From Seison nebaliae (lineage: Eukaryota): 45,462 bases of DNA. Below, in pieces: positions 1,851 to 43,345 of the stretch (positions are counted from its first letter, which is position 1; every line of letters starts with the position of its first letter). The notes under the pieces were generated by a model. It saw only the letters and a program-made list of their open reading frames with translations, was not told the DNA's origin and did not search any database. The translations under genes and the position numbers were made by a program. Location of the stretch: contig JALJEE010000433.1 in assembly GCA_023231475.1 (NCBI GenBank), positions 1-45,462 on the forward strand. The letters run 5' to 3'.

Positions 1851-2220
1851 TCATTTCTTTCCATTGAACAATTTCTCTTGTTCTTCAATGAAACGTGCCA
1901 ATTTAATGTCACGTTGAGAGAGACCATTAACATCATGTGTTGTCAATGTTATTTCTACTCGATTGTAGACATTGAACCATTCGGGATGATGATCCATTTT
2001 TTCCGCTTTGATGGCTATCGATGTCATGAAAGAGAATGCCTAAACCGAAAGAAGATGAATAAAGTCGAGAAGGAAGAAAATACACTTCTATAAAATTAGA
2101 GAATTGAAATTTTTTTTTAATTGCATCACGCTCCTCAATATACTGCCATCCGTTTTTGAGGAATTCTTCTGTTAGAACAGTCTCACGTTCATTTGGAGAA
2201 AATGCATTTGTCGAATTCAT
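1851..2220 (-). CDS. PCBD: Pterin-4-alpha-carbinolamine dehydratase (PCBD/DCoH), 2 exons
   Basis: Exons 2220-2086 and 2039-1851; intron 2085-2040 (46 nt, GTGTAT..TTTAG). The spliced product has [66 protein letters not shown], the PCBD signature. Confidence 0.95.
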
Positions 2221-3650
2221 TTTAGTTTTATTTGATAGAAAATTTTTTGGAATAAGAAAACTTTTGTGTTTGTATTGTCGTATATGTGAAAAGATGAAAT
2301 AAGCGCCATTCTGACACACAGTTTTATACATGACCATTTGGAATGAAGCGTGAAAAGATGGAAATATGTATTAGTTGTAGATGAGAAGCCTGCTTTTCTA
2401 TTTGCATTTTATCCTTCGACTAACGGATTGACGTCTATTGTTCAAGTATTCTTATACACCTCCTCTTCCATTCTCCTTCTTACACTATTTTGTACCGAAA
2501 CGAACCATAGCAGTGGTAGAAGAAAGGATATTGATTGGAATAGTGTTGAAATGACAATATGAACTAGATTGATCTCAATTCTCATAATTGTTTCTTTAGA
2601 GAAATAGAATAAGAAAAAATAAAAAAGAAAATGTGAAAACTTGGTATGGATACGAATCGTATCTTTTAATTGGGAAACTTATAGATTTAAATTGAAAAAA
2701 ATGGAAAAATATTAGACGGTTTGTGTTCAGGGACAATTTTTGTTAATCGATCAGTAAATTAAAGGACCTTCTGTCTCTTATACATTCATGTATAATTTAT
2801 GATGAATTGCCATAGACATATTTAATTCTAATTTCTATTGTTGTGGATGATTGATCTGACAAAAACTATAAATTCCAATTGGGATTCCTCTTAAAATGAA
2901 ATATTCTAATATCGAAAATTCTAATTCGGTCGAGTCGAACTGAAGTATTAAAAATCAATTTCATATTCATCTTTTTCACCACTTAAAGAAGAAGATGATG
3001 TCCTGATTGGAAAAAACAAGAAAATTATTTTAAATTATTTATCAAAATTATACTATTGACAATTCAGTAAATGAAAAGGATGAGGAACAAATAAACAAGT
3101 TAAATGTATTTGACGTAAATAAATTGCGGGAACGATTTTGGGGGTGAGAAAATCATTTGAATAAGAAGGAAGTTCTACTCGCATTTTATTTACAGACGGT
3201 CTACCAGAACAGAACATATTCCTTTGCGAACAATCGACGTTTATATTTGTGTTGTTTGTCATGTAATTGGAGGACAAGTCTCGTATAAAAGACAATAAAG
3301 TTTTGATGTGAATAATTATTTAAATTTCATTCACTATTCTTTCCTTTTTTATTTTAAATTACTATGTTATGTGAATGATTTCCGGATATAGAAAAGGTTG
3401 AACGAATGGCTGGTCGTTTCATGTGACATTTCAACCACATCACACCCAACAATTACTGCCATCACTTAAAGATTTGGTGTTGTATATTGGGGGTATCGTT
3501 CGGTGTTGCAATGTTGTAGAGAAGTTGCACATTCTAATTTTGGAAGGAGGGGCAAAAGAAACAACTTACATTTTTTTGTATTTCTTTTAATGAAACCATA
3601 AATTGTATGAAGATTGATGACCAAATATATAGAATGGATGACACCCATCC

Positions 3651-3664
3651 GTTGTCATAGTAAC
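3651..3664. promoter_or_regulatory. RFX X-box-like motif
   Basis: GTTGTCATAGTAAC fits the X-box consensus GTHNYY-AT-RRNAAC and lies ~870 bp upstream of claudin-like gene 1. Confidence 0.4.
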
Positions 3665-4536: not shown

Positions 4537-5154
4537 ATGAATTGTTTTTTTATTTCGGGAACTATTATTGTCTTCTGTTCATGCGTATTGCTACTCACAT
4601 CTCTGTTGACGAAAGAATGGTTCTCTAACAAATCCATTACAATGGCAATTTACGATTACTGCACATTGAAAGTGAATGACAATAAGGAATGTTTCACATT
4701 TAAACGACACGAAAACTCTGATAATGACAATGATCAATGGACGAAGGATGTGATACTAATGGTTATTGCCAGCCTTTCAGGAACACTAGCACTTTTTACG
4801 TTAATGGTCGCTCTCATTTCATTTTATTTACCGAGACTACGATATAAGAAACGAACTTATATTCCTCTCGTTTTGGCAGTTTTCTGTTTATTAACAAGTT
4901 ATTTTTTTATCTTTTCTTGTGAAATATTTCAAAATTTTCTTATTTATTAAGGTGGATTAATCGCATATACGTTCGGGTTCTTCCTCAGTGATCTCAAAAC
5001 GAAAAAAATCGACGATATTGGTTACTCGTTCTGGTGTAATGTGAGTGCAGCAATTGGATTTATCTTCGGTGTAATATTTTTCCTGTTGTCATTTCTTGAT
5101 TCGTACGTGTCGAACAAATCAATGAAACATCTCAGACCGACGTTGAACTACTAA
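4537..5154 (+). CDS. Claudin/PMP22/EMP-like four-transmembrane protein (paralogue 1), 2 exons
   Basis: Exons 4537-4897 and 4952-5154; intron 4898-4951 (54 nt, GTTATT..TAAG). Four hydrophobic segments, W and a Cys pair in loop 1 (EWF...YDYC...EC), and GYSFW before TM4. Confidence 0.8.
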
Positions 5155-5606: not shown

Positions 5607-8600
5607 GGTCTGCAATAATAAAATAATATTTACTCATTCACCTTATCATACATTCTTTTTTCTTGTGTATATTCCTCTATGCAAAACGGTATTCTACTTT
5701 TACCTTACCCTCCCACTTATACAAGATGAACACTAGTGAACAGTATGAAAATTCTCAGGTTACTGTCATTCTTAATCGTCCGACCGAATAACTTGGGAAA
5801 AACTTCGTTTTTTATATTGGATTAATGACATTTACCATATTTGTCTGGATGCCACTCTACTCCACCTCTCCAATAGAATAAAATGAAAAATAATAGGAAT
5901 ACATCGCCGCATATTATTAGAAAGAACAACAATTCGTTTTATAAATGTGCTAGCTTCCCATAAAAAAATATGGTTGGAACGGTAGGCAATCGTAGTGCCA
6001 TTATCAAATATCGCACTTACGACATATCCGTCATAAGTAGAATGATTGGAAATGGAACGATTGGAAAGAAAAGATTGAAGATAAATTAAGTAAAATCGTT
6101 CTTCTAACACTTCCCCTTCACTTTTATGTTTCTTTAAAAGAACTAATAAATTATTAGTAATAATTGATGTAATAATAATTTATTATCGAATCTCGAATTA
6201 TCGTGACCATTCTAATGTGGAAGAAATAACATTAACAACTTTTCTTAAATCATATGTCATTAAAAATTCAACAGCAATATGTGACTCATCCACACGAATA
6301 CACAAATGTCAGATGATGTTATGGTAAATGAAGGAAGTCATCATTTTCATTCCGGAAGAAAAAAAAGTAAAATTTGTCGATCAAAAAAAAGGAAAACTTT
6401 CTCACTTTCACGTTTCCATTCGGCATTTGGTAATTCCTTTCTTACTATGTCCTCTTTTCAGTTCTAATATTTTATTAAATTAAGACGATTCCAATTATCC
6501 TCCAAAAATGTCATCAATTCAACATGAACCTCTTCCCACATGTACCACTTTCACAAATCGAAAAGAACATTCCCTCTACAAAGAAGACCAAGGAGATAAA
6601 TATTGTATATTCAATTAATGAAAATATGATATGTTTCTCGTGGTTTCTCTTATCGAAATTCCACTCATTCACCCGTTCTGTGTCCTCTTTTTAAGCTGTT
6701 CTTACCACTTAAACAATTATCATCATTTCTCCCTCATTCAATCATAAATATTCGACCGGCTTCTTCTTTTAACGTTCTTTCTCTCTTCGACGCACGAAAA
6801 TTAGAAGAGAACTCTTATTCTCAATTTGTTCAGTATTTAAGAGGTGAATTATACGATTGAGAAGTTCGTTCATGAAGAAATAAAATCCTCGAGTCAAATC
6901 TAAAGTGAAGATTGATTCAATTCTTCTCCATTGAAACAAAATCCAATTTATTTTCTCTACATAATTTATGAAAGGCAATTTATTTTTTTACCAATGTCTT
7001 CTTTAAATTTTTCCTGAGAGAAGGACGCCATAATACTCGCGTTTACTCATATTTTGAATTAGAACTCTTATTTCATCGGTTATTAGATATTCTCAAAAGT
7101 TCACTTCATTGTAACAAAATTATTATACGAGAATTACAAACAATTGTTCTATTTCCGTTATGAAATTACTTTAATGTTTAAGAGAAACCCTTAGGTAAGT
7201 GTCGCACCGATTGGAAGAATTTAAGAAGGTTTTCATTTCAATAAAAATATATTATTTGACTAACTGTTGATATGGCAATAAATTGACCATTGAGACATTT
7301 GAAATGCAAATAATAATGATTTAAAATTATTTCCAAATTTTCGCTACCTGCAAAACAGTGATTTCGCAACACTATTTGAATTGAAACCATGATTATATTG
7401 AGTCACGGAAAGAAGTGAATGCTATTTCAATTTACTTCATCTAACTAATACGTTCATTGCTCTTTCACGTCAATAGAAACAATTTGTCATTCACTTACGA
7501 AAGAGAGTCTTATGGTCATTTCATTAGAGAAACGAATTGGTACCAAGGTAATCCAAGAAAAGTAACTTTTCTCTTTTACCAATTCTTTTCATCATATTTA
7601 TTTTCCTTCCACTATTTTCTTCAGTCGCACATTCTATTAACATTAGTCGTTTGTTCATTTCACTTCTCCCTTTCATATTTCATGTTATTCTTCATCTCAA
7701 ATTCTATTCCATACTGTTCTTAAATTTACCTGAGTTAGATGTACATGCGATTTGTGTGTAATTTCGTCTCCGTTCCTATACGATTGTATATATGGTATTC
7801 ATACAATTATATTATTTCTAGTCTAATTTGCTTTCTACTTCTTTCGAGAGAGACGGAAACTTATTTGTTCATTCTTTTTTCACATAAAAGAAAGTTTTCC
7901 GATATAAAAACGTGAATGACAATTTCCAATATCCATAGGATTCATGAAGACAAACTAACAAAATTGAAAGTTTCGTGGAAACTTCAATGATAAATTTAAA
8001 TGTTAAACATTGTTCTTTTAATTCAGTGTGAATTTCACACTGTGAAATTGAGAACAATAATTGACGTCAATTCGTATATTTTTTCAATATTTAATTTAAA
8101 TATTTTTGTTGATAACAATCTTCTTTTTTTGGGCGTCGATAATTAATTATATTTATCATCTTTTTCTACACAGCGTGTAGGTTAGTTGTCGGACAGATTG
8201 TAACTCTAAATAAAAGTTTTGTAAAGGTCCGTTCTCATTCCATAATTAGGACAGTTAATTTTTATTCTTTTCCACAATTTTCAATTGCTTCAGAAAAAAC
8301 GATAGTTCAAAATTTTACAAGGCAATGAAGAAGTAACTGGAAGGATTGTAGCTGTTTATAAAATTTTTAAAAAGACGACAGTTATCAACTCCCAGTTAGA
8401 ACAAGTCTTCAATTTATTCTTCAACTGTTCATTATTAACAGATAAACGTGTTAGTAAGTTTAGAAGATTCATAGATTTATCTGGAATATTGATTGACGAT
8501 ATTTCTCCAGGGATAAAAATTCAAAGAGATATATCTAAGATATGTAAGTTTCAAACTTATATGAGACGAAGTATATGTTATGTCAGATGGAATTGGAGAA

Positions 8601-11600
8601 CGACATTTTCTAGACTTTTGTGCTCTGTGTGAGGAAGAGAGTACAGAAAGACTTTTTATAAATGATAAGATTAAAAGAGAAAAAAAATTAATTCAATACA
8701 TTAGGCATGAGAAACTGAAGAGATTAATGGTAAATTATGACGTTTTCATTGTATAATATGAACGCAATGACAATTACGTGGTCGACAGCTCGAAGATTAG
8801 ACAATTTTGAGACTAATTTACTTTTAAATGAACGAAAAAGATTACTTATAAGAATATGTAAAATAAGAATTATAATTTTTTTCGAACGAATAATAAAAAA
8901 AATTAATTTAATTATTTAATTCATAAAAAACGCGACTACATCGATTAATTACGCCGTGCTGTTGACACCGAAGACAGCAAAAAAAATCTTCAGGTTTTTT
9001 CTAATTTATTCTGGTTGGAATTTTAAATAAATAATGATAATAAATAACATATAATTGTAATTTTTCAGTATCTCGTAATGTTAAAAACATGAATTTCTTC
9101 AGGAATTGTCCGTCAAGAAGTTGAAGGCATCTATAATTGTCCGAAAGAATAAAAAAATAAGTTGAGAATTGATGTTGATGTACGGTTACAAGATGTCCTC
9201 CAACCTGTACACTAATTTCCATATTTTTTAATAATTAATAATAAAAACACTAATTTTGTTAATATACAAATATAATGAATAAGTATTGAAATAATTAAAT
9301 AGAATGTTAATATGATTCATCAACTTTAACACATCTCCTCTAAAAAAGAATGATCCGGTTCTTTTTCTTATAGCACCCGCCCCATCGTCGCCGTCTCAAA
9401 TAAGTTCGTAGTGTTGCATTTAAATAAGAACATGATTTAAATAAATACAAGAAATTTGTTTTTATGAGATGAGAGATTGTAAGAAGAGACGACATGGAAT
9501 AGACTCATCCTAGTAGAAAATAATAAATATCCATTTAACCATACACCTGTTACCAACCGACCGACTAACTGAAACTCATATAGTCGAAGTAATATAAGAA
9601 GCGGATAAAAAGTATGACTTGTTGACACAAGCGGAGATGTAAGAAAATTGTTTTCTGGATGTTCTATTAAAGAACTTATTATATTTATATTAGTTGTATC
9701 TCAAATATCTTACGTAACTTAAACACATAGGTAAAATGTTTTTATAAGGACATCATCTTTCATTATTCATTGGTATTGTCTGCGGAGATAAGATCAACTT
9801 TTTACATTTCTCTTCTGATTCTTCCTCATAACCGACCAATCACCCTTAGTTTATTTTCATTTATTTCTTTCTCCCAATACACTTCCATATTGGATGGATG
9901 GAAAAAGATAAAGTTGAATTAATTCTATCAATGGAATCAATGTAAATAAAAGAATAATTATGTGTAAATTTTTTTATCAAATTTCATCGAATTCAGATTC
10001 ACAGGTTTTCGATCAGCCACCGAAATTCTTAAGCTTAACTGAAAGAAACTTTGTTTTCAGATGGAGTTAATTAATTTGGTGAGAACTCTATTTATTGTGA
10101 AGAGTTGTGATATTGATATGAACTTTTCAGATTTAATCTGGATTACATTGAACTTAAACTAGATATTTTCTGATTTGTCATCATACTATTCTACTTTACA
10201 AGTTATACCTAGTACGAAATTGTATCAAATGAAACTTTCAGTTTTGTATATATACGTTTAAGTAATTTAAGAAGAAAAGTTATAAATTGATTTTCTTTTA
10301 TTATGGACAATGTTCTTTGTCATTTTTTCGAGGGGAATTTTTATGAATTGACATAGCACCATATGATACTCATCGAGTTGTTGGAGAGAAGGCAGATTGT
10401 ATATACGTGAAGAGAATGAGGATATTTTCTATGGGAATTATAATAAAGAATGAAGGAAGAAGATGAAATTAAATGATTCTCTCACACAAAGATTCGTTCA
10501 TTCGAATGCAATATTGTCAGTTATTCCACAATTAAAATTAACGAAATTATTCCAAATAATAAATTGTTTCCATTGTCCATTTATGAGACTGTATTTATTC
10601 ACATCTAACAAAATAGAATAGAACGTTCTCATTTAATGGAGTCGTACGAAATCTGCTTCCGTTCGTTTCACGTTAACTTGTCAATTCTGATGATGAAGGG
10701 ATCAAATACGTTATGGTTAACATAATCAGTGACACATTAGATATGCGATCTCAACAGATAATATAAAAATTGCCGATTCTCAACAATTTCGCAATTATCA
10801 ACTATATGTATTCGATTCCTCGTCTTCGTTTTATTCCATATATCTATCCGTCCACTCTCTTCGTACCATCAAAACCGACATTTTCTTATTATACCTTACC
10901 ACCACCATCAGCTCTACCATCATCATCGCTATCGTTGTTCTTCTTTTTATTCCATCGATAAAATGGTGATACATCTTTTTAAATTTCTTTCTGATAAGAA
11001 ATACGATAGAAAAGAAAACGGTTATAATTGCGATAACTCCAGACGATAATGAGAACGAATTCTTTCTTTAATTCGCCATACACATTAATGGTGACTTCAT
11101 CAAATTAACACATCAACATTCCACGACCATTATGTTAAACGAATAACTGTAATCGTCCACCAAATATTGACGAATTCACGAAACCATTTATGTTCCTAAA
11201 ATATTTATAAAAGGAGAAGAAATCATAAGAAAATTTCAATTCAATTTATTGAAATGTTTAATATCTTCCTCCTACGTCGTCAATAAGAACAACATTTATT
11301 TTTATAGTCAAATTCATTCTTTTCCATTCATCCCCCCTTATTTTTCTTCCTTTCGAAAGAATGAGATAGGAGATCTCTGAAATTTTACGATACTTCATTT
11401 CTATACATTTCTTCTAATCAACTTTTCTTATTTAAGGTTGAGAGACATTGATGATAAATTAACTGTTCTATTATAAATGGACTGCGTTTGGAATGAATCA
11501 ATAACGCACCGATATTTTATAGCCAATTATTAAATAATTATTCTCAAATGAGTTCATCATAAATCTTCTTTTCTCATTCGATCTATCAATCCTCCAACAT

Positions 11601-14095: not shown

Positions 14096-14808
14096 ATGGT
14101 TCTGGCGTTTCATCTTGGTAACGTCTTTGCATTTCTCGCAACAGTCGCTTTCCTCATCGCAATTAGATCATCAAATTGGTGCCAAACTGAAATCGATAGC
14201 GGTGATGGAAACGAGAAGAAATATGGAATTATTCAAGAAGGTATCTTCGAAAATTGCACCATCATCCACAAATGGACCAACAGTAGTACACTATTATATG
14301 AACTCCAGAGGAATACAAGCAGCACCGGTTTAACCAATTGTCAACCGTTACGTCAATTCGAGGATATAAAAAAATGGAAAGCAAATATCAATGGTTTCAT
14401 TCAAAAATATCTTCTTAATTTAAAAATTATATTTGACAGATAAAAAAATTATTTTGATGGTCATTGCTTCAGTAACGGCATTTCTTGGTGTTTTTACTTG
14501 TATACTGTCCTTATTCGCGGGTTGTACTCGTCGAGGTATATTATCTCAACGCATGATTGAAATTATCATATTCTTCTGCTTCTCATCATGTTTGAATGTT
14601 TATTATATTGAATTTATTAAAACTTTTCATTTTAGTTGTATTAACAACGACAACATTTTCATTATTCGCCGCTGAATCGAGGAAGACTGTTGGATCATTC
14701 AAATGGGGATTCTTCCTTTGTGTGGCTGCCGCTGGTGCATATCTGATTGCATTCAGTTCATATTTTATTTGTCGAGCGAATTGTAGTCGAACTCAGAGAG
14801 AAGACTGA
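14096..14808 (+). CDS. Claudin/PMP22/EMP-like four-transmembrane protein (paralogue 2), 3 exons
   Basis: Exons 14096-14393, 14440-14589 and 14636-14808; introns 14394-14439 (GTTTCA) and 14590-14635 (GTTTGA), both 46 nt. Contains the W..GIFENC..C claudin loop motif. TM2 IILMVIASV resembles VILMVIASL of paralogue 1. An alternative in-frame ATG is at 14039. Confidence 0.82.
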
Positions 14809-15596: not shown

Positions 15597-16165
15597 TTAT
15601 TTTTGTGCGATATCAATATCTTTGATTGCGAAGAATTTGTCATGAGCCGAATCCACTTGAAATCGTACATGTTTCGCTTCCATTTTTTTTGAGAATGTTA
15701 TTTTGGTCGGTTTAAATCCACCTCTTGGATCCACTCGAGAGATATCTGAGTTAACATAATTTATATGAAATAAGGTAAACGGGTTACTAACCTACAGCTT
15801 TTACTTTTTTGAAATCGGTGCTGGTTGTATCAGTAGAGATAGAAATGAGTAATTTGTTGACTGAAATTAATATCAAGAAATTTATTTGTAAATTAGAACA
15901 AACTCCCATAACTGACCAGAATAATTTCATTGAAATGTAAGAGTTGGGGAAACGTAATGACAATAAATTGTGGAACGAATCCACTGGAAACCCAATAACT
16001 TGATGGATTTCTATAAAGACAATCACGATTTCAATCGAAAATGAAAAGAAACCCATCGATGACATGGTCGGGTCGATGCACATCGTCATTCGATGTTGCC
16101 ATCGAGACAACACCTCCAATTTTACGCAGTCCCATCGTATTATAAATTACTTTTCTTTTTACCAT
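15597..16165 (-). CDS. IFT25: Intraflagellar transport protein 25 (IFT25/HSPB11), 4 exons, 145 aa; not shown in the ORF track
   Basis: Exons 16165-16053, 16010-15904, 15860-15792 and 15745-15597; introns of 42, 43 and 46 nt (GTTTCT, GTTTGT, GTTAGT). The product ...VSMATSNDDVHRPDHVIDGNPSSYWVSSGFVPQFIVITF...AKHVRFQVDSAHDKFFAI matches recalled IFT25 (ATSSDEKHPPENIIDGNPETFWTTTGMFPQEFII...LRFIIVSAFDHF). An X-box lies upstream. Confidence 0.92.
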
Positions 16166-16199
16166 TATGATTTAGATGTAATCACTAACGCTACCAGCT

Positions 16200-16243: not shown

Positions 16244-16744
16244 AATGGATAAATATATGTTCTATCATTATTAACTGGTGGTTGGAGAATTAAACTGAGA
16301 ATATTAAGCTTATCTCACCGATCAGATAAACAAAATTTAACAAAGAACTAAAATTTCTATAATAATTTTTATTTATTATTAAATTCTCGTAAATACATAC
16401 ATTAAATGGAACATTTCGATCTTGATCAACGTTCTCGATTGAACTTACCTATTCTTCGCCAACGACGAGCGAGAAATCCGACCGTCTTAAAAGATTAATT
16501 ACTTGAAAAATTATGGAGATTGATCCATAGAAGCTCTTAAAAAGTTACAAACGTAACCTTAAAAAACAAATTTAGTTTTTGGAACGAAAAGAAAAATCTG
16601 AATATTTTGTTTCGAATATAATCTACCACGATAGAAGAGAGATAACGGAGGTCGATGATTGAACCAAGGATGATAGATGGTGGAGAATATAAGGGGAATT
16701 GAGCAGAAAAATTCTTTAACAAGATTTTTTACCAACTAACAAAA

Positions 16745-16860
16745 GGAACGATTAAGAAGCAGAATGTCATCTGCATAGACCAGAACATGTAAGAACGATA
16801 TAAATGACGCTTAATTCGTTCAAGTTAGGGAGAAGGTCGTCGATGCCTATCCGTAAAAGC
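16745..16860 (-). pseudogene. Small remnant of a non-LTR retrotransposon reverse transcriptase
   Basis: Minus strand reads IGIDDLLPNLNELS, then after a frameshift HVLVYADDILLLNRS (YADD codons at 16777-16766). No long ORF. Confidence 0.55.
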
Positions 16861-17886
16861 CAAGAACTAATAATAGTAGAATGGCTAATATTCTATAGAA
16901 ACTCATTTTTTATCCAAATTTGTTTAATTATGGAAAAGATGTAAATAAAGGAGAAATATTAATTTATAAATATTATATATATAATTATAGAGGGATTAAT
17001 AAAAACCAGATTCTTGACTATAGATGTATGAAAGATAAATATGAAATATTGTCTTTTGATAGTTGATAAATGATTATGTTTTGATAGCGCGATGTTTATA
17101 AATATGTAGTGAAAGAAGACTGTCCTGGGTTAAAATCCCACTTACAAGTTGTTAGAAGAAAAAAATTTGTTCTAAAAAGAAAAATTTTGGATTCGAATAA
17201 AATATGAGGTAGAAACGTAACAAAAATATATGAGCTGAGGAAATGTCTAATCTGTAGGCTATACAGAAATACTCTATGAGTATACACTTTCTTTTATACA
17301 GTTACATGTACCTTAAATCTCCATTCAGAAGCCAATTTTGTTTTAAACTTATCATGCATTATTTTTAGAATATGCATGATTTTTTTCAGCATCTTTGACG
17401 ATTGCGAGAACGTGTTGTTTCCATTGTGAATTTCATATTTCAGAAAAGTTTTCGTACATTGTTTTCCAGTGATATCAACGTTATTAAAATACATTGATCT
17501 TCTTTGTTTATTGATATCGGGAAAGAGAAGCAATTGACACCGAAACCTGTTCCATATTAGACTTCAGACAAATGAAACAGATTTTATATCTGAAATATTT
17601 TGAATAATATTTGAATTTATGTAAATCGGCCGAACATTTTTAAGTTTTGCTTTAGATTGAATGATTGAATTATGTGAATGAACATGAGCTATTAACTTGA
17701 ATGAAATGAGGAATAAGTAATAAAATTATTATAAAAGAAATTGAATGTTGTGTGAATAAAATAATTGTGGATTAATTTTTATTACAGAAAAAGAAAAATT
17801 CTTCTTATTTTAATTTGAACGTTACAATTTAATTTGTTGAAATTCTCTAATTTTATATACTACCAAATTAGTTGAGCATCGAAAAA

Positions 17887-24524: not shown

Positions 24525-26905
24525 TTAATAAAGTGTTCTCAATTCAGCATTCTCCTCTCGAAGTCTCGTCACTTCCTCGATGAGTTCGGCATTCATTTGA
24601 GAGATTGGAATCAATTTTTCCATTTGTGTCTTTATCTCGTTCGTTAATTTTTGTTGGTCCCATTGAAGTGAAGAGATTTCGAAACTGAGATCGACACTCA
24701 TTCCGAGGAGAACGGTTTTGGTTTTTTGGAATTCATCCCGAATATCTTCCATCTGTTTTGAGAGAGTGGACAATGTCAATTCTCCATCATTGTTCTTTTC
24801 ATCCACCATCTGAGTAAGATCGTCAGCACCATCATCGTTCGATAATGTCCTCGTATTACGATGTACACGTCGATTAACGTTATCGTAACTTTTTTGCCAT
24901 TTATTCTCTTTCAAATCGGGATTATTCGCCAAATGTGTCAAAGAATAGAAAGGTGCATTCGATTGTTTCATCAATGTGGATTCATCTTGTTTTTGAGGTT
25001 GAGAGGAATTACCACCATCCAACGGTATCACAACATTTCGACGCTCATTTGAATTACCATTAGAATTATCGATGTTAAATGTATTTCTCGAACTTGTCTT
25101 TAAATTATTAATAATCATATTTTTGTTATTGTTGTTGTTATTGGAGGTTGAGTTATGAAAAGTAGAAAAATTTGATTGATCAAAATTATCCCGTTGATGA
25201 GTTAGATTACTAAAATCGCTGCCGTTTGAGAAACGATTTTCATAATCACTTTTCGTTGTTGTCAATCGATCGATAAATTCTTTTTATGATTATTGGAGAA
25301 TAGTAATGAAATAAAAATAGAAGAATTAAAGAAAAAACTTGATCGATATTGATCTCTTTCGATTTCATTATAATTTCTATTCAAATTCTTTTCTTGTATC
25401 GGTTTCACTTTAAATATATTTATGAAATTATTTTACAACAAATTATTAACATTGTACTTGTTGTTGTTGTTGTTGTTGTTGATTCATAGTAGATTGTGAA
25501 TAATAATCACTAACACGATCATCAGTCAATTGTCTAGGATGAAATGGTTTATTTGAGAGACTGTTAACAGATCGATCCGATCGTTCCGTCGATTCTCCAT
25601 TCAGTTCATTTGACAAAGGTTTTTGTAAGATGGCTGATAAATTAGATGATTCTGATTTACTCGATCGTACTTTCGATAATAAACTATTATTATTATTATT
25701 ACTATTATTGATTGATTTATCGTTTTCATTCTAATAATAAAAAAATGAAATTACAAAAAATTTTCTTTTACAAATTAAAATTTTTTTCTAACAATCTCAT
25801 TAAATCGATTAACTTGTTGTGGTTCGTTTGATAATGATGATACAGATACTCGACTACTAATAACATTATGTCGGAATTTTAACGAACGTAATGGACGTTC
25901 ACAGCAAACAATGGTATTTACCGGTTTCAAATCGGACATGTGTAAATATCTCAAATCATAAATTAACGCATTTCCATCCGCCGTACCAGCTGCTATCGTA
26001 TAACCGGAAGTATAAATATCGATACTACACAATTTCCTTCCTGTCTGATACATTTTCAATTGTTTCTCTTTCTTCACGTCGAACAAACCAAGACGTCCGT
26101 CCAAACTGACCGATACCAACAAATACGGATTAATGGGCGAGAATGCCAATTGTGCATCTTCTAACGTCTGAGTTTTTCGGAAATCCTGAATACATTTCTG
26201 CGCGTTACAATCCCAGAGAGTGATAGCTCCGCTTAAATGAGCCGAAGCGACCAAATAAGGTCGATGATGTGAGAAGAAGGCGCAACTAATTCCCCCATAA
26301 TATTTCCGATTAGACGATGTTCGTTGAGAAGTCGACGTCGAATTACTGTGAACACTGTCCGAATCTTTCGATGGTTGATGACAAACATAACCTTCAACAC
26401 ATAAGGGAAATCGATTTCCAGTGACGAAATTATGAGTCACCAGATCTCCATTTTTTGTTCCGATGAGAACATTGGTATAAGTTCCATTGAAATCTAATGC
26501 CGTCACTTGACCATTATTACCCACATATTGTTTAGCAATCTTTATTTCATTTCTATCATTATTATCGTCATCGTTAAAAACATTTCCGTCATCATCTTCG
26601 GTTGAAAGAATGTCATTTGATTGATATAAATTCACAATTCCATTCATATGACCTGTACTGAACATATCCTCCGTAAATCGACATATTACCGCCTCGTTAA
26701 TATTATTCAGCGTCGTCACATAACCATCAGAAACGCTAATGATATTCGCATGATCAGCTGTCACACTACATGAGCCCAATTGAGTGTACTCATTATTCCA
26801 GACACAATCCGTTAAGAAATCCTCTTCGAATGGAACGAATTCTCGATGTAACGTATTCGTTTCGAGACTCCAGATTTTTGCCGTATCCGAAACGGTGAGA
26901 AACAT
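24525..26905 (-). CDS. NEDD1: NEDD1/GCP-WD (gamma-tubulin ring complex targeting WD40 protein), 4 exons
   Basis: Exons 26905-25814, 25730-25451, 25407-25339 and 25279-24525; introns of 83, 43 and 59 nt (GTTAAT, GTTAAT, GTTTTT). N-terminal WD40 repeats (FSPINPYLLVSVSLDG, AGTADG..IYDLR), a low-complexity linker, and the C-terminal coil LIEEVTRLREENAELR typical of NEDD1. Confidence 0.85.
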
Positions 26906-28616: not shown

Positions 28617-29012
28617 AATTCCCCCATAAGGTGAATACCGCTCCGGAATTCGAAACAGTTCCTGAGAATTGGTCAATATGCCGATGAATTTTTAAAACCG
28701 ATATATGGTTGTTAATTGGTTGTTATACTTATATACGAATCCCGGAGCGGTATTCACCTTATGGGGGAATTCACCCTGTTTCTCATTTTCGGAGAGGAAC
28801 TCACTCAAATATCGGAGCGGAATTCACCCAAAAAGATGCTTTCGGAGAAGAATTCACCCAAAAGTAGTTTTTCGGAGAGGAATTTACCCAAATTTGAGGA
28901 TTTCGGAGAGGAAGTCACTCTATTTTTAGTTTTTCGGAGAGGAATTCACTCTAATTTCAAATCTTCCAAGAGGAATTCACCTCCTTTCAGTTTTTCGAAG
29001 AGGAATTCACCT
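28617..29012. repeat. 36-bp inverted repeat pair followed by a ~30-bp minisatellite; probable non-autonomous element
   Basis: 28617-28652 and 28736-28771 are reverse complements with 1 mismatch. About 8 degenerate tttcggagaggaattcacc-core units follow. Confidence 0.8.
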
Positions 29013-29247
29013 TTTAATTTTATCTTTCAAGATTATTCCTGTTATATTTTTCCTTTTCATATCTTTTTATTTCTCGGTCATCCATGTCACTAAACTAATG
29101 GAGGAATTGATTGATAATGACGTTCTCTTTAATATGATGAATGTTGATTTGTAGAAATGATGAATCGGAATAAATGAATTTTTTTCTTAAAAAATTTATT
29201 AAAATTAGATTTCATGTAGAGAGAAAAGAAGTTTCCAATTAAAAATC

Positions 29248-32900: not shown

Positions 32901-33529
32901 TGTGACAAGTTGGAAATATTGGATAGTTGCTTTCACTGCGATAAGTCCTCCTCCATCTCTCGCTCAATCAACTCAGTCATGTTAAATGAGTCGTGTTCAA
33001 ATCGTATTTGGTAATCTAATAAAGCTTTAGTTATTGAACGAGAAATCGAAAGTTTAATGGAAACAGGAAGACGATCCATCTACTCTATTTTAATGATAAT
33101 AAGAGGAATAGATTGCATGCAACCATTCGATATTATGTGTCGGTTAACTAGTTTTTTTCTTGTTTTCGAATGAAACTGCCTGCTAACTGGAGAATGTGCA
33201 GAGTAGGTACTAAAGTGAATGTTTGAAGTAGACTAAGAAAAGAAAAGCGGAGTGAGAGAAAGAGGTATAGGAAATGCCATTGGCAAAGAATGGTAGTAAT
33301 GGAAAGAAAGTTTACTAGCGTCGGGATTGGAGAAAAGGTCATGAGAAAAGACTCATTAATTTCTTTTTATTTCCTAATTTCTTCTTTCCATCCATCATTT
33401 CTAATATACTATATCCCGAGTAGAAGTCGGTTTATATTTTTCATTCAATTTCCATGTTGAACGAACATCTTACTTATCTAATTGTTGCAATTTTCTAATT
33501 AACATACTCATTCGATAAGTGATAGAAAC

Positions 33530-34334
33530 ATGAAAAATTTGGTGATCTCTTGTATTCTCTTCTGGATTCAACGACCACTCGTCGCCCAACAACTGGCACG
33601 ATTCGATAACGATGATGACCGATCCGACTCTCTCAAATGTTTCAATTGTTACGTGCCTATGTTGGGTGTGACGAAGTCGACGGTTTATTGTTTGGGGATC
33701 ACTCACTTCTTCGAGAAGAAATTGGAAGTAGAACGAAAATCATTGAACAAGTCGAAGAACGAAATACTGGAAGAGAATTCGGTATTAATTCCCCGTCAGG
33801 TTTTCGACTATCAATTCGTTCAAGCCGATTACCAACAACAGAGCGATGGGAGAATTCTATTTCCGGCGGTGATATGTAGAAGCGATGAAGTATGTTTCGT
33901 TAGTATATTACTTCCAATACTTCTTTATTAGTCACCTTTTATTCCTTCTCCGAAAACTATATCTACTACGACTGGATGTTAATTGGGTTGACTTGGAAAT
34001 TGTGTTGGTGATCATTCCATTGTTGACGAATGTTAATGGAATACTGATGATACTGATGATAATGATGAAATTGAATAATATATCCATCATAACGAATTAA
34101 TAGACAGAAAGAGTGATATTCAGCAATGTTGACACTTCATTCAGACGTGGCTGCATTTCTCGCCAACAATGCAACATGTCGGCTTGCATCGAATATCATA
34201 ACTATGTCGCATGTATGCATTGCTGTCAAACAAACCTGTGCAATCGAACTAACAACTCGAAAAGAATAATATCAAATGATGATATAATGCTTATCATCGG
34301 AATGTTTTCCATTTTAATAGTAATGTTCATTTAA
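33530..34334 (+). CDS. Ly6/uPAR three-finger protein, probably GPI-anchored, 2 exons
   Basis: Exons 33530-33898 and 34104-34334; intron 33899-34103 (205 nt, GTTAGT..TAG). Signal peptide, LKCFNC...C...C...C..RGC..C..C..C..CCQTNLCN (10 Cys) and a hydrophobic C-terminus. Confidence 0.85.
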
Positions 34335-34776
34335 AAACATTGGAACTGTTAGTTTATTCTTTCTCCCTTCATGCTCTTCCTATCTCATCCACAAACTCTA
34401 ATAATCACACTGAAAGAAGATCGAAAGATATGTCGAAAAGGTGATCGATGAACCACTATCACTCGGAACGATTTCGTGAATACAGAGAAAGTAGTACCTT
34501 AATCGTCGACCTCGGTGTACATCTTAAGGGGAGGAAGGTTTTCTCGAATATTTTTTTTTTCAAATTTATGTCATTCTTCTTTCTCCTTCTTTTGTATTCT
34601 TTTGCCTCTTTTTTTTATTATGAGCGAGAAAAGGTGAAAGGAAATGGAAAACATTATTCCTGTAGATTATTCCTGTTATATTTTTCCTTTTCATATCTTT
34701 TTATTTCTAATATATTTACACATCTTTCCACTTTCTTTCCATTATGAAACATTATGTGGAAGAATAGCAATTCTTT

Positions 34777-34845
34777 CTATCCATCCATCCATCCATCCAT
34801 CCATCCATCCATCCATCGTTCCATCGTTCCATCTATCTATCCGTT
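34777..34845. repeat. (ATCC)n microsatellite with degenerate tail
   Basis: Direct reading of the sequence. Confidence 0.9.
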
Positions 34846-36827
34846 CAACTAACCATCTATCCGCCCCATCATCTACCTACAATAGATGGGGCAGTACGCT
34901 TGTGTTGGTAGGAAGGATGTATCGATAGGAATTGTTGTGATAAAATTTTTCATATTCCTATTTTTGAGTATTGGCATACATATGTATATGTGGGACATGT
35001 ATACCTTATTCGGATGTTACATAAATAATATTCATGTGGGAGAAAGAAAGGAAGAAAGAAAATGAAGGAATATTGAGGAGCTTTCGACATGCTCCTTTTC
35101 TCCCTTAGTTCTTGCTTTGTTTACTTATACATACAATGTACTTCCCATTATAATGCAATTTGAAGTTGGAGAATTTTCTACTTTGATTCTCCTCCTCATT
35201 ATCAGCATCAGTAGCATTATAATCATCACCGTCATCATGTAGTTAAATAACAATACCTGATTCTCAGTTGTTCTTACTGAAAATTGGTGTACGAGTAAGA
35301 ATGTGGAAGAATAACTTCCACTCATTCATTTCAGTTTACTCACCAACTCTTCCACAAACACACAAATGAACACAAAGAGATGCATCGAATAACATTCAAT
35401 GCTCACCTTCCATCAGTACATTATGATATTGGAAAATAATTACTTGTTTTCCTTTTCCGTCATTCTGCCTATTAGTCAACTAATTAACTTTCCGTTTTGC
35501 CTATTTTACATGTTCGTACGTTTCCTCTTCAATTGCTCATGAAGATTTTAATGAGATTTGGAAAATCGATAAATTTATTTTTTCTTATTCCGATCTGATG
35601 CATTCTAATTACATCTCGACAAGTGTCGAAGTAAATAGACGCACATTTTTGCTTCGTTGAAAGAAATTTGGTTAATTCTCTCATCGATCATCTCCCACCC
35701 CATTAAATGCTTCTCCACAATATGACGACGGGGTGACATAAGAAAAGGAATTTGCTCGAAAAATAAGTATCTTCATTCGTTTGCCTTTCCGTCCACTGCA
35801 CCGTGCACATATGGCTGATTGGAAGGAAGATGTGTTCTTCTGCCTCGTTCTTTTCTTCATTATCAAATCGGCATTTCTTTCATTACAATACCAAATTAAT
35901 TATGCACACATCTATCTGTAATTGAATCGCATAATATGTCTTTAATTATATCGTTCTGTACATATTCAAATTTACATAAATATTCATTGGTCTTTCTTTG
36001 AAACATGTTTATCTGGAAACTAAAAGAAAAGTATTTCGTTTTAATTTGGAATGGAGCTCTTAAGTTCTTCCTCTAATTCCAATCGAACTTCTCTTTCATA
36101 TCCCCCAACTTTCATTCTTCCATTGCAAACTAGTTTAACAATTGATTTTCATTCTTTCTTCAACCATTCTAATCTACCTTTATGGCTTTACACAGAAACC
36201 ATTCTCTCCAGACCATAATTCTTTCATTCCTCGCACCAATCTTTCATGAGACAAGTCTCTTCCCAACAATTCTTCAAAGGTTTCTCCTCAAAACTTTCAC
36301 GATGATAAATATGAATGAATTCACTTTCCAAATTACCTTCCCCAATTACGAATCCTAATTAGAGAGAACCAAATTTCCATATACTATCTTTACACCTTAC
36401 TGATTTTGAACGATTGGATTTGAGGGTTGTACCATTTCATTTGACGTATTCAACTACTCTCAAATCATTCCCATATGAAGAAGCTTCTCCATATGAACTG
36501 CAACTCCATTGTATTGATGATCGTATGTTTGTGAGATGATCTATTATCGTATATGATCATAGTTCATTCACATTCCTACATCAATCATTGGAGTAGGGAA
36601 GAAAGAAGGAAAGTTTTAACGAAACAAATCTGCTGTACGTGCAATTTTATGCGTACATCTAGGTGTGTATGGGACGAAGTTATTCTACTAATATCACCCA
36701 TTAGCTAGTTATCATTCTTCTGTATATCCAAACGATTCAATCGGTTGATGATGTACATATGCTGATGGTAGTATTATACCAATAGCACAATGGGTCTGTG
36801 TCTTATTGTGCGATTGTGCATATTCTC

Positions 36828-36905: not shown

Positions 36906-37598
36906 CAGTAGTCAGTAGAGTTATGTAAAAGGAAAGAATCGATTATATAATCATTGTGTATGAGACGTAAATCATAAAATAAGTTGGGTGAAAGAATAAA
37001 GATTTAATTAATTTGATATTAATATAAATTAGAAATTAATGAATTTATTTATCAGAAACAATTTCTATTCTTTTCTTTTTCGGATGTGGAGTTACGTATG
37101 ACCAAATCTTTCGGTGCATCTTATTCATATATATATTACATATTATGTATGAACTTCAACTTTTCCCTCATTTCTATTTACTTCTAATCACACTCATAAT
37201 GATTAAAATAATGGAAATAATACGAAATGACATTCATCAACTACATCCATCACCTCCCTCCTTCTCCCCATCTGCCCCATCTCTCTATATGTCCATTGAC
37301 AGCAGTAGTAGCGGCGGCCGTAGTAGTGGTGGTGGAATATACATGTCGATGATTCTATAGTCTCTCTATAACCGTCTGTACAAGTGGCTCTGTTGCCAGA
37401 CAGGAAAAAGAAAAGTAGATTGAAAGTGCTGAAATTTATTATTTTTTCTTCTCTATTCCAATTGCATTGCACATCGATGATTCTTCTCATTATTGTTTTC
37501 ATATGTTTCTCCCATAGTTTGCCCGTCTCGCTACCTCCGAGGAGCAGAATAACGAACACTATTTCTATTTGAAACACTTAATCGAATTGAGTGACACA

Positions 37599-38232
37599 AT
37601 GGGAAATGAATATTCCAATATCCCACTTGATCTTCCCGTCAACTTCGATTTGGAAGAGATCAAACGACTCGGTTCATCTTTTTCTTCTCTTCTCTCAATC
37701 TCAACTCAAACTTTTCATAGGTAAACGCTTTCGTCGAATCGATTTGGATGGGAATGGATCGTTATCTGCAACTGAATTCAAATCAATTCCCGAACTTGAT
37801 CAGAATCCACTCGTCCAAAGAGTCATCGACATCTTCGATACAGATAAAGATGGCGAGGTGGATTTTAAAGAATTTATTCAAGGTCTCATTTCCATTAGAC
37901 TATTTCTTTTACATCTCCATTTCCTTTCTCTTCTCCCCGAAGGAATCTCATTATTTAGTGTGAAAGGTGAAAAGTTGAGTAAATTAAGATTCGCCTTCCA
38001 AATTTACGATGTTGATAACGACGGGTATATAAGTAACGGCGAACTATTCCAAGTGCTCAAAATGATGGTAGGCAACAATTTGAAAGATACGGCCCTCCAA
38101 CAAATCGTGGATAAGACAATAATGAATGCAGATAAGGACGGTGACGGTAAGATCTCATTCGAAGAGTTTTGTGATGTCGTTGGCGATTCGGTGAAAACGA
38201 CGATCGAAACTAAAATGACCGTTCAATTATGA
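37599..38232 (+). CDS. PPP3R1: Calcineurin subunit B (PP2B regulatory subunit), 3 exons
   Basis: Exons 37599-37671, 37721-37882 and 37943-38232; introns 37672-37720 (49 nt, GTTCAT) and 37883-37942 (60 nt, GTCTCA..GAAG). Product MGNEYS...[22 protein letters not shown]...[14 protein letters not shown]...[35 protein letters not shown], with four EF-hands and a myristoylation Gly2. Confidence 0.97.
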
Positions 38233-38349
38233 ATTTGTATAAACCATTTTCACTCATTCTTTCAATTTCCGTTAAATTTTATTTTGCTGATAAAAAAAAA
38301 GAAATTCCATCAATCGTTTTTCTAACTAAATCTCTTCGATTATTCTCCG

Positions 38350-41076
38350 TCAGTCTTCAAAAATACCTTCAATAATTGGATGTGCCAAATGGAAAGGTGA
38401 TTCCTGTTATTCTCATCATCAACAAATTCATCATTCGTCAAATGAAATTCTAACCAATAATTGTCGTCCATCTGAACTATTACATGATTGAGTGATGGGA
38501 GCACGATTATAGAAGTTTTGAAGTAATTGTCGACTGAACGGATTGATATTCATCATATTGAATAATTTCTTATGATCATTTGATCCATTAGTCGAAATAT
38601 TGAACGAACTAAGAAATGGAAAAGAAGGAATATATTTATAGGAATTATAATAACTAATTGTAAGTGGAGAAGAGTTTATCTAATGATTTCTCATCAACAG
38701 CCGATTTGCACAATTCCAAATTGATTGATGGGTAATAATGGATGTAATTAAGACACATCTCATCGAAGATACTCGTACCACCCTACGTTTCAAACGAAAT
38801 GAAGAGCAAATTAACATATTACATAACAATACATTAACATAAAACAAAGTTACCAACAAATGTCATTTTATTCCGTTCCATCGTGTTATGGAGACATTGA
38901 TGAATAATCATATCTCCCTGAATTGGAAATTAAGAAGAAATTCAATTGGACTTCATACGAACTGGAAATATTTTCACTTCATTCTGTAACAAACGAATTT
39001 CTTGAAATGTCGAATCATAATTCTCATCACGATTCAATGATATTATTTTCCCGTCTTTCCGCACGACATATGTGGAGACTCCAATTCCCGTCAAATGAGT
39101 ATGTAATTGAGAAGCGAAAACGGATATACCTTTTTCTGGTATGATCTTCATGGAACTGAAATGTTTCTAAAGTAGAAATAGAATTGGAACCTGTTCCGTA
39201 CATTCAGATAAACAGAAAGCAGTTTGAATAAATTTTGGGGATTGAGGTGGAATTGAATTAAGTTCGTTATATTCCAATCCCAATTCCATGATAGCGGCAT
39301 CGTTCGACCGGATATCAGGTGTGATGGTGAACCGAATTCCTGATGAATCTCTCACTCCAAGAATATGTCGGGGATTATTATAGTGAATCTCCAATACGAC
39401 ATAGGGAGGAAATGCTTCACCTCCAACAGGTGTGCCGGTGTTTGCAGGATAAATAAATTCCTAAAAGATTTCCAAAAAAATTTTGAAAAAAAATTAAATT
39501 TTTCTTCAAAACATATGAGAAACATTAGCACCCATGGCCCATGCACCCAATACTTTGCGGCATGATTCCAAGCCTGAAGGCTTCCCTTCACTCGTACATC
39601 GACCGTTATATTCCACGACTTCATCATCCGTCCAACAATGGAACAATTCCATATGGTGAACGATTCCTGATGATTCTGGCGACAGTTCCGCATCAAACTG
39701 AAAGAAAGAATTATTTTTTTACTCCTCAATATATTAACGGCGATTATATGATGTTTGTGAGATAATTTGGGGAATTTGAATGTTGTGCACCAATAGGTGG
39801 TCTCATCCGATGGTATTTCCACATTTCTCGCTCGGAATTTTATGGTGAAATTATTTGGGGTAGAATGAAGAGTGGAATAGAATAGTTTACTTTTTGGTAA
39901 TTGAATCATTTGGTAAATCGGTTCTCCAAAATGCAACTTGTTCAACATCGGAAGATCATTGCCAACAACGACGGAGGACGTGGACGATAATCCTTTCTCA
40001 ATATTGATCATCACCAAATGAGTAGTTCCTACCTGCGAAACAAAAACGTTACCAAGATGATGTTTCGGTTATCTAACTAAAATTTCATAAAACGGAATCG
40101 GCGGTTCTCGTTCTCGTTCGAATTGCACATAATTAAATGATTTCCATTTGAATTGTTTAATTTTCTTCAAAGTATTCATGGTGGAACTTCTTCCATTGAT
40201 TGAGCCATTGACGAAAAGAAGATGCTACAAATAAATGATTATGATTAATATGTAAATAATGAACTTCGATTAAACGATGTTCATTCGTATGTTGAGGATT
40301 GATGAGAATGAGATCGGAATCGATTAAAGATTTTTGAGATTGAGTAAATCCGAAAACGATTCCATTTGGTGAATGATTCAAGTTAGTTCGTATAATGAAA
40401 TCGAACGATTTTACATCACTCACATCATCACCATTCTCATTAACCGTCTTCACTCGATTCGTGTTCCAATACAATTTCATTTCATTTTTATTATCTAACA
40501 CGACCGAATTATAATTGGTCAATGATTCTTCGAAATTCTTCGACGATTCTCTAAAAATAATCACGAAATATTTGAATTCGAATTCTCATCGAAAATGAAC
40601 CGAAGACAATTCTTGAAAATTGATTTCAAACTGTCAATTCCATCGGACAATTTGAAGGATTCTAATAACTCTTCGATACAAGTCAAAATTGATTCGACTG
40701 ACGACTCTTCCAAATTCTTCAAAAATTCTCCACTTCGTTTTCCCATTAAATTTTTTGTGGACAAGGAAAACTGGTGTGGGAATTTGAAGAGATCTGAGTT
40801 GGTCTTTTCTCCATTCCAATCGGCATATGGAAAACGGAAAATTGGCTTCTGCCAAAAAGGAACTAATGGTCCGAAAATATTCGGACGGAAAAAAGGAAAT
40901 ATTTTCTTCCGACGAACTAAACTGCTACGATCGATGGCATTGTGAAGATAGTGAATTGCCGTTGGATAATTATCGAGAGTTCTCAGATGATGATCAATGT
41001 TTGTTAGTAAGTCGTCGATCGGTACTGAGTTAAGTTGGAGAAGGAAGAGAGTGAAAATGGTGAGATGGAGAAACAT
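38350..41076 (-). CDS. DBH/TBH: Dopamine/tyramine beta-hydroxylase (DOMON + copper type II monooxygenase) with a prohormone-like first exon, 11 exons
   Basis: Introns at 40600-40551, 40264-40225, 40077-40033, 39738-39698, 39523-39461, 39190-39146, 38962-38918, 38857-38783, 38654-38609 and 38454-38404. The spliced product has ETTYWC, GIVHHMELFHC, VLGAWAMGA, LEIHYNNP, DAAIMELGL, FASQLHTHLTG and DEMCLNYIHYYP, so all Cu ligands are present. Exon 1 linkage and the last exon are less certain than the core. Confidence 0.92.
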
Positions 41077-41405
41077 TTTTCGCTCGAGAAAATGAGAGAA
41101 TGAAAAAGAAATGGGAATGTTGTGCTGGAGGGTAGTTGGGAGAAATTAATAAATTATTCAAATGTTCCATCATTATCTTATCTTGTGATATTAATTTAGA
41201 AATTAATAAAATTATGTAAATTTATCGAGATGTTGAAGAATTGAGGAATATTGTTTAGTCTTAGGTGTTAATGAGAGATGTGGCGGTGGAATTAGAAAAA
41301 AAGTGAATTTACTTCAAAATAGGAAAAGCAATATTTTTGCGCTAATTGAAATAGGAAGAGGAATTTAAATGAAATGAAATAATTCGATATGAAAACTTAA
41401 TTCGA

Positions 41406-43345
41406 ATGGAAGAGATTCATCCGATAAAATTTAGTTTAAATGATAATGGACGATTTTATGCTTTTTTAAATCTGTACAATCATTCAGTGAATGCGTCACT
41501 ACTTTACAAGATCCTATCGAACAATCGGTATTATATCGCTAAACCGGCTATCTGTATTATTCCACCAAATAAGACAGTTCAATTAGAGATCATTCAGAAC
41601 ATCGACTATCCGGACGAGGAGAAAGTGAACCATCAATTCATTATCATTTGCCTCTTCCACCAGAATATCGAGCTGGGTGACCGTGAGAAATTACAGACTT
41701 TATTCAACTGTTAATTTATTTTAAGTTGATGTCAATGAAACTTTCATTTCGTAGCGAATAAAGAGAATGTGAGTCGAATTCAATTTTTTGCTAATCTACC
41801 CGATGACTTTGACGATTACGACGACGAAGGAATGAAAAACTTAAATTGTCATTTCACTAAATCTCATGATATCCGATTGACACATCCCATCATTGAGATT
41901 GTGGAGGATAAGGACTACGATCTAAGAAATAGGAATAACAATGCTAAAAAGGAGTCGGTAGACAGTTTAACATTTTCACTCATCGCTTATCCTTTGTAAT
42001 TTGAAGTAGAGGGTCAGAGGAAACAGAAAAAGAATTCGACGGAACCGTATTCCGATATCAGTTCGACCGGTACCAATCCACCGTCATCTAGACCACAGAT
42101 GGGGAAGAACGTTAACAATTTCATTCGTTCAACTAGTTAAAATATTCTCTAATAGTTCGTGGGTCAAACTTATCTTCAAATGATTCTCATACCCGTTCTC
42201 CTCATTCTACTCTTCTCTGCCGTCACTCTCCATTTGAGGAATCGTGGTGTGACAAGTTGATTTTGGAGAGTTCCATCATTTTTTTTCATTCATTTTCAGA
42301 AATTACCGTCGTCGCCAAACAAAAGACGATGAGACCACATTTGAAGAAACCGATATTAGTCATTCCTCATCAACAAGCGCATCCTCAACTTGCTTATCAT
42401 ACAGCCATGCGACCACATCCACGTCCACGACCTCCATTTCGACCCGGTTCCGCATATCCGTTCTTTCAATCCAAATTTCCCTTGAGAGTCGAAGAGGAAG
42501 AATATCAGGAATATCCAACTGAAGAAATTAGTTATGGGAAAGTGATGAATCATCAGCCGATCAATCCAACTGGTGTCGATTACCATTATGGTGGTGTCAA
42601 TCACCGGGGAAGACCGGGTGGAAGGATCGGTGGGAGACCAGTGGGCAGATCCGGTGGAAGGGGATCAATGAGGACAGGGAAACATAACAAATTTACGAAA
42701 GCGAAGAAATTGGCGGAACCGCCGATAGAAAAAACGGCAGTTAACACCCATACATTTATAGGTAGAAATCAGAAGATTAATCGAGCAAGTCATAAGATTG
42801 GTGCAAGTTCGGGTCATATGCCCATTGTTCAATCGAATAGTGTTCGGAGTATGATGGTGAACAGTGAAGTGGAAGCGAAGCAAAATCGAGAAATTGAGAA
42901 TTTAGTTCATGACAATTTGGCATTGGATAATCGAAATTTTATGATTAATCAAAATATCGGAGGTAACAACCGAATCGTTCGTGGAGCAGATGAAAATAAT
43001 GAACGTAGTAGAAACTTAAAACGAAGACATGTTCACACACTTCCCACATTTCAGGGTTCCCGCTATCGAGGTGTTCGTCCTAATATTCGAGATTATCGTC
43101 TTCTCGTCAAAGGAGCAATTGGGAAAGATTTCAAGTCACATATGGTTGATGTTCCTCGATTGCATCCTCTACAATTACAAGTGAAATCGTTAATGTCTGG
43201 TGATCTACAAGTGGATCGACCCGTTTTCAGTGATTACTTGAAAACGTTGTGTGAACAGGATCATTATGACAGAATTCTCCGAATCAAATGTATGGACACG
43301 GTGAAAAGAAATGCAGCGAAATTCAAGGGGAAAACTGTCAATTGA
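41406..43345 (+). CDS. Divergent MSP-domain (VAP/MOSPD-like) membrane protein with a long post-TM extension, 5 exons
   Basis: Exons 41406-41709, 41755-41964, 42010-42110, 42156-42255 and 42300-43345 join in frame through 44-45-nt GTT..AG introns. The N-terminus resembles an MSP fold (LNLYN..LYKI..YIAKP..IIPPNKTVQLEI...HQFII), followed by TM MILIPVLLILLFSAVTL. Confidence 0.65.

Follow-up and report, generated by a model that had tools for sequence, protein, structure and literature searches.

In the consensus animal donor the third base of the intron (+3) is a purine, a preference usually explained by pairing with the U1 small nuclear RNA (snRNA). What selects the donor when nearly every intron carries T there instead? 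The question is raised by contig JALJEE010000433.1 of Seison nebaliae, a marine seisonid rotifer; the whole 45,462 nucleotides (nt) of this one 45-kb contig, from which all the introns studied are drawn, are called the window below. The window has a G+C content of 32% and its genes are compact. An earlier note on this DNA had listed 30 introns, dominated by GTT donors and without any GTA, and had proposed either a compensatory U1 with A at position 6 or a recognition leaning little on U1 pairing. For this contig the divergent donor code is confirmed. Among 28 introns that we rebuilt, 26 begin with GTT, one with GTG, one with GTC and none with GTA, so that only one has the A or G at +3 of the standard animal donor GTRAGT, and 27 of the 30 introns listed earlier have a counterpart in the rebuilt set.

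Because the earlier note named genes without junction coordinates, the introns were rebuilt from scratch on three tiers of evidence. Eighteen are fixed by transcripts, through the GMAP alignments of Trinity transcripts in supplement 2 of the Seison genome paper (PMC8351084), which match window coordinates at offset 0. At least 18 GMAP transcript rows belong to this contig, and the spliced ones contain 18 gaps in four minus-strand genes, PCBD (2), IFT25 (3), NEDD1 (3) and DBH (10). When every equivalent placement was listed for each gap (one to three each), exactly one was GT-AG in 18 of 18; all 18 gaps start with GT, end with AG and are removed from the mRNA, as U2-type spliceosomal introns are. 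Seventeen of them are GTT and one is GTG. The fear voiced earlier, that the choice of junctions had been biased toward GTT, is therefore unfounded, and we reject such a bias as the source of the pattern. The DBH transcript was found in the GMAP file by its exon and intron lengths, all ten gaps lie at the window's own coordinates, and the deposited 741-residue DBH-like protein SNEBB_001402 (model P0007), encoded on the window contig, has the same ten introns.

The second tier is homology: alignment to solved structures sets the two calcineurin B junctions, one GTT and one GTC. The third consists of eight introns that agree with deposited protein models (three in claudin-like genes, one in a Ly6-like gene and four in an MSP-domain gene), all GTT, although these models derive from a gene finder that may itself have learned a GTT bias. 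Continuity of the open reading frame (ORF) alone leaves the MSP-gene junctions loose, with 21,883 possible chains, some including GTA; the gene has two deposited isoforms of 586 and 587 residues under the same locus tag, one residue apart, which suggests that RNA entered the deposited models. The transcript check covers minus-strand junctions, since almost all genes in the examined parts of the 19,906 GMAP rows are on that strand. Two extra deposited Ly6 introns, three introns of a small transmembrane gene and a GTAAGT intron at 8544-8586 were left out of the 28; for the small transmembrane gene, 504 models are possible and neither a transcript nor a deposited model was found.

For 17 of the 28 introns an assembly slip can be dismissed at the DNA level. 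Contigs from DNA runs X1 and X4 cover 29030-34663, 34830-36826 and 36912-44400 with no differing letters in the listed pieces, an agreement that is not independent support, as the source sample may be part of these runs. Splice joints were looked for in the DNA-run contigs and none was found; the runs behave as DNA. Runs X6 and X7 yielded no contig.

The excess of GTT stands against several backgrounds. In the four transcribed genes, T comes next in 124 of 351 non-donor GTs (35%), compared with 17 of 18 donors (95% interval 0.73-1.0; p=2.5e-7), and with DBH removed 8 of 10 firm introns are still GTT (p=0.005). When every GT followed by an AG at a distance of 40-75 nt is counted in nine genes, the donors are 26 of 165 GTT, 0 of 89 GTA, 1 of 104 GTG and 1 of 92 GTC (GTT versus GTA, p=1.2e-5). 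Most such decoys lie in exons, and decay would hide any out-of-frame use, so this comparison measures mature mRNA and not raw choice. It is highly improbable that no special code exists and that the pattern reflects T-rich composition, a local oddity of the contig or the recent spread of one GTT-ended element. The introns are 47% T, the data come from one contig and a single gene provides 10 of the 18 transcript-fixed introns; yet T-richness alone is rejected by the 17 of 18 GTT donors when intron interiors, with 47% T, serve as the background (p=3e-5), and nine genes on both strands agree. An introner origin is likewise rejected, since the introns lack shared sequence and are no more alike than shuffles (best pairwise score 28, compared with 29.7).

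How GMAP wrote the gaps bears on whether the contig is an oddity. To be called an intron by GMAP, a short gap must have two ends that both rate highly under the splice models built into the program. In the window 18 of 18 gaps were written as deletions; four of the 400 file parts contain 127 gaps of 40-99 nt on other contigs, of which 116 were so written and 11 as introns (counted by hand, isoforms merged), a difference with p=0.36. On this indirect sign the window seems typical of the genome, in a tally that has no control species and does not tell apart which intron end is weak.

Beyond +3 the donors retain little. At +4 any base is accepted, with A in 11 of the 28 donors, T in 10, C in 5 and G in 2, and T does not exceed background; G at +5 occurs in 9 of 28, close to the 8 of 30 given earlier, and is low although enriched over the intron background (p=7e-4). 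T occupies +6 in 18 of 28 (p=0.05), the exon ends in G in 8 of 28, and a pyrimidine is found at +3 in 27 of 28. Introns measure 40-75 nt in 27 of 28. Acceptors are TAG in 13, CAG in 8 and AAG in 7, behind a loose T tract, and no positionally fixed branch-point motif was found in the 28 introns. GTT starts are a hallmark of donors bound by standard U1 in a shifted or bulged register, which are reported to make up about 1.5% of human donors (PMC4856993). That Seison uses such registers throughout is extremely improbable, and the idea is largely refuted here. A register shifted by one base, with the consensus displaced accordingly, predicts G at +6, and G is absent from +6 to +8 in all 28 donors, which excludes it; shifted matches other than +3 fail to separate donors from decoys (area under the curve, AUC, 0.50), and the residual +5G and +6T signal sits in the normal register.

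A pattern scan of metagenome contigs yielded at least 130 U1-like loci, and four DNA runs containing this contig were aligned to one invertebrate-type U1 (L049; Rfam RF00003, 152 bits) with a limit of 80% likeness. Each of the four runs returned exactly one U1-like contig, in which 91 letters aligned with 17 differences (74 of 91 alike). Ahead of the match the unaligned letters read as a standard U1 start, ACUUAC included, and behind it they supply the strand that closes the first helix, together with an Sm-site-like T run. In each of two studies the depth at this U1 agrees with that of single-copy window contigs, at 17.9 in X1, compared with 14.9-17.5 for the contigs, and 5.4 in X4, compared with 5.7-9.8; from these depths we infer that the recovered U1 is that of Seison, an origin from the host or a co-sampled organism being possible. 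Of 123 complete U1 sequences compared, L110:202-371 resembles the ends of the recovered U1 much more closely than any other. The standard U1 pattern had no match in viral contigs, and an Rfam search of the window also gave no match.

The U1 5′ end that we looked at is thus the standard one, and the simple compensatory explanation, with A at position 6, is not supported. A second, more divergent U1 carrying this change could still do the work, which we consider improbable. A hypothetical U1 with A at position 6 pairs better with donors than with decoys (AUC 0.62, p=0.015), a circular result in that it rewards T at +3; the +5G and +6T traces remain in register, changes of this kind in U1 are described for Entamoeba and Mastigamoeba (bioRxiv 10.1101/2022.06.08.495308), and the likeness limit of the U1 search was marginal. 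Against this, the sole U1-like contig in each of the four runs is standard and extends unbroken over 626-2242 nt at single-copy depth, which makes a near-identical second copy less likely, and the A6-type pattern had no match in the metagenome contigs, where a similar standard pattern had at least 130, a comparison that says nothing direct about Seison.

The suggestion that recognition leans little on U1 pairing fits. Predicted duplexes with the recovered U1 end, computed without pseudouridine parameters, average 2.05 kcal/mol for donors and 2.09 for decoys, compared with 14 for the consensus, and do not separate the two groups (AUC 0.49). Fifteen GTA or GTG sites that match U1 at 7 or more of 11 positions go unused. 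Standard U1 should favor A at +3, yet none of the 89 usable GTA sites is a donor, and the selector is therefore probably elsewhere. It might be found in changed proteins (U1C, LUC7 or U-rich binders of the TIA1 type) that read T at +3 during the U1 stage on a standard U1 RNA, an account that we regard as rather unlikely. The standard U1 end with its very weak predicted pairing, the lack of G at +6 to +8 and the T-richness of the introns would suit it, and the U1C of Entamoeba is reported to be highly diverged (bioRxiv 10.1101/2022.06.08.495308); a single fixed base with free neighbors nevertheless seems a better fit to a base pair than to a binder of U tracts.

We tentatively favor, with a little less than even confidence, a model in which U1 is ordinary and tolerates U at +3, and T is selected later, at the U6 ACAGA step, through a G44·U wobble. 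Binding of GTT donors by a standard-end U1 would be weak and would include a mismatch between U and pseudouridine at +3. T would be selected when U6 takes over and G44 wobble-pairs with U+3, and changed proteins around the U6/donor helix would make this pair count more than in other animals. The pseudouridylation, the U6 sequence and the changed helix proteins are things we infer. Donor position +3 faces U6 G44, with which A and G interact only weakly (PMC11732430), and either U or C, the pyrimidines of 27 of the 28 donors, can pair with G. U-pseudouridine pairs are tolerated in U1 helices, as shown for +4 in human cells (PMC4856993), and such tolerance would make GTT usable while leaving the avoidance of GTA unexplained. 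In the yeast switches at +4, U1 and U6 are reported to be invariant and the donors track METTL16 and SNRNP27K, proteins acting at the U6 step (PMC10581693); the standard U1 end of Seison matches the invariant U1 of this type of switch. Roy and Bowser have raised the idea that GUUUGU could increase U6 pairing (bioRxiv 10.1101/2022.06.08.495308).

A variant in which U6 itself has changed, with A at position 44 forming a Watson-Crick pair with U+3, is very unlikely. It would account for the single fixed T, the free neighbors and the standard U1, and a changed ACAGAGA box is known in Cyanidioschyzon (PMC10158995); the ACAGA box is nevertheless reported to be invariant in 240 yeast and outgroup genomes (PMC10581693) and standard in Entamoeba (bioRxiv 10.1101/2022.06.08.495308).

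Several points weigh against selection by wobble at U6 or against the GTT donor code. Animals with a preference for A or G at +3 have a conserved G44 as well, so the wobble alone is insufficient and a second change is needed. The U6 helix would be short too, since +4 is free and +5G is limited to 9 of 28, and a U6-style score (AUC 0.79) brings no gain over +3T alone (0.80). A count of matches to standard U1 does distinguish donors and decoys (AUC 0.75), an effect due in part to intron composition. The recovered U1 matched at 81%, and with the limit at 80% a more divergent U1 would be missed; its source organism is assigned by depth only. The deposited Ly6 model carries two further introns, one GTG and one GTT, which we treat as doubtful because they break the C-terminal motif of Ly6; they are probably mispredictions. 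These introns, at 34238-34416, cut the C-terminal cysteine motif and the hydrophobic tail, and a minus-strand-type transcript row overlaps 34123-34366. Finally, an unannotated ORF at 8306-8756 could be joined through a GTAAGT donor and is the one possible counter-example. It is located between the consecutive locus tags 001390 and 001391; no transcript, deposited model or Pfam match was found for it and two protein searches returned nothing. Codon-usage scores of this ORF and of the small transmembrane gene are low, and real exons such as claudin-like 1 score equally low. In the surrounding stretch, 8143-8756, there are stop-free frames outside the annotation that include segments resembling introns (GTT at 8254, GTA at 8544).

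Entamoeba was the comparison drawn in the earlier note, and it holds in part. Its donors are reported as near-universal GUUUGU (about 88%), read by a co-evolved U1 with ACAAAC, in an intron-poor genome (bioRxiv 10.1101/2022.06.08.495308). Both lineages have U at +3 in nearly all introns and +5G/+6U in the normal register. Unlike the strict motif and changed U1 of Entamoeba, Seison, an animal with many short introns, has T at +4 in 10 of 28 donors and GTTTGT in one of 28, and the single U1 recovered reads ACUUAC, a divergent paralogue being possible. The same source describes a different U1 change in Mastigamoeba, and donors that changed while U1 did not in yeasts, Thecamonas and Micromonas. 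The +4U donors of Saccharomycotina (PMC10581693) resemble those of Seison in that the base opposite a U1 pseudouridine turned to U with U1 unchanged; they differ in the position, +4 and not +3, and in belonging to mostly intron-poor fungi with a strong remaining consensus. With the two metazoan donor classes, NN//GURAG and AG//GUNNN (PMC11732430), Seison shares GT-AG ends and weak exon-side and +5G/+6T traces, whereas GURAG occurs in 0 of 28 and a preceding AG in 3 of 28, so that most donors fit neither class. In Fritillaria borealis (PMC13326754), likewise an animal with a small genome, the splice signals have changed and the U1 5′ ends have not followed; 95% of its introns are non-GT-AG and it shows a U2AF duplication and altered N6-methyladenosine, whereas Seison keeps GT-AG and changes only +3.

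Introns of the window and two further features.
Feature	Coordinates	Strand	Length (nt)	Donor	Evidence	Remark
PCBD (pterin-4a dehydratase) coding intron	2040..2085	-	46	GTG	transcript gap; Pfam	
PCBD 5′ untranslated region intron	2594..2640	-	47	GTT	transcript gap	new relative to earlier list
Claudin-like 1 intron	4898..4951	+	54	GTT	deposited model P0010	
Putative intron in unannotated ORF	8544..8586	+		GTAAGT	sequence only	
Claudin-like 2 intron 1	14394..14439	+	46	GTT	deposited model P0009	
Claudin-like 2 intron 2	14590..14635	+	46	GTT	deposited model P0009	
IFT25-like intron 3	15746..15791	-	46	GTT	transcript gap	gene name from earlier note
IFT25-like intron 2	15861..15903	-	43	GTT	transcript gap	
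IFT25-like intron 1	16011..16052	-	42	GTT	transcript gap	
Small transmembrane gene of earlier note	16400..16906	-			ORF only	3 introns left out of counts
NEDD1-like WD40 gene intron 3	25280..25338	-	59	GTT	transcript gap	
NEDD1-like intron 2	25408..25450	-	43	GTT	transcript gap	GTA 7 nt upstream unused
NEDD1-like intron 1	25731..25792	-	62	GTT	transcript gap	
Ly6-like intron	33899..34103	+	205	GTTAGT	deposited model P0008	in-frame GTATGT 9 nt upstream unused in model
Calcineurin B intron 1	37672..37720	+	49	GTT	homology	
Calcineurin B intron 2	37883..37942	+	60	GTC	homology	
DBH-like intron 10	38404..38454	-	51	GTT	transcript gap; model P0007	
DBH-like intron 9	38609..38654	-	46	GTT	transcript gap; model P0007	
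DBH-like intron 8	38783..38857	-	75	GTT	transcript gap; model P0007	three internal GTA sites unused
DBH-like intron 7	38918..38962	-	45	GTT	transcript gap; model P0007	
DBH-like intron 6	39146..39190	-	45	GTT	transcript gap; model P0007	
DBH-like intron 5	39461..39523	-	63	GTT	transcript gap; model P0007	
DBH-like intron 4	39698..39738	-	41	GTT	transcript gap; model P0007	
DBH-like intron 3	40033..40077	-	45	GTT	transcript gap; model P0007	
DBH-like intron 2	40225..40264	-	40	GTT	transcript gap; model P0007	
DBH-like intron 1	40551..40600	-	50	GTT	transcript gap; model P0007	
MSP-domain gene intron 1	41710..41754	+	45	GTT	deposited model P0011	
MSP-domain gene intron 2	41965..42009	+		GTT	deposited model	tandem acceptors at 42006 and 42009
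MSP-domain gene intron 3	42111..42155	+	45	GTT	deposited model	
MSP-domain gene intron 4	42256..42299	+	44	GTT	deposited model	

Other features of the window lie apart from the splicing question. A high-copy repeat region at 27114-29111 reaches a summed depth of about 550 in X1 and contains a Tc3-type transposase helix-turn-helix fragment (27931-28101). At 26640-26905 a low-depth X1 contig has 39 differences in 266 letters, those listed being mostly three bases apart, and we read it as a diverged second strain or a paralogue; two strains are described for Seison (PMC8351084). A COX6B-like frame at 17872-18345 has about 85 extra N-terminal residues before the Pfam domain and no intron was seen in it. 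Unspliced transcripts with no evident protein frame lie at 3081-3584, 6287-6732, 10361-10989, 16992-17594 and 32752-33079.

In the searched literature, which covers subscription journals thinly, GTT-majority donors are unreported in Seison, rotifers or other animals. The accessible text of the Seison genome paper, which also reports that the animal lives on Nebalia crustaceans, names introns twice, for length only (PMC8351084), splicing terms are absent from its supplement 1, and the accessible parts of PMC10125929 and PMC10599564 contain nothing on GTT donors. A GTT majority is apparently undescribed for an animal and a variant of the known theme of atypical donors. We consider it somewhat probable, on balance, that Seison is an intron-rich animal in which +3 has flipped from purine to U genome-wide, with GTA excluded and a standard U1, and in which donor identity is set by U6 or its partner proteins and not by pairing with U1. 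Programs trained on human splice sites go wrong on this genome: in the published alignments these introns appear as deletions. With U fixed at +3 and the base that pairs best with its U1 avoided, such an animal offers a natural experiment that bears on the step at which the donor is chosen.

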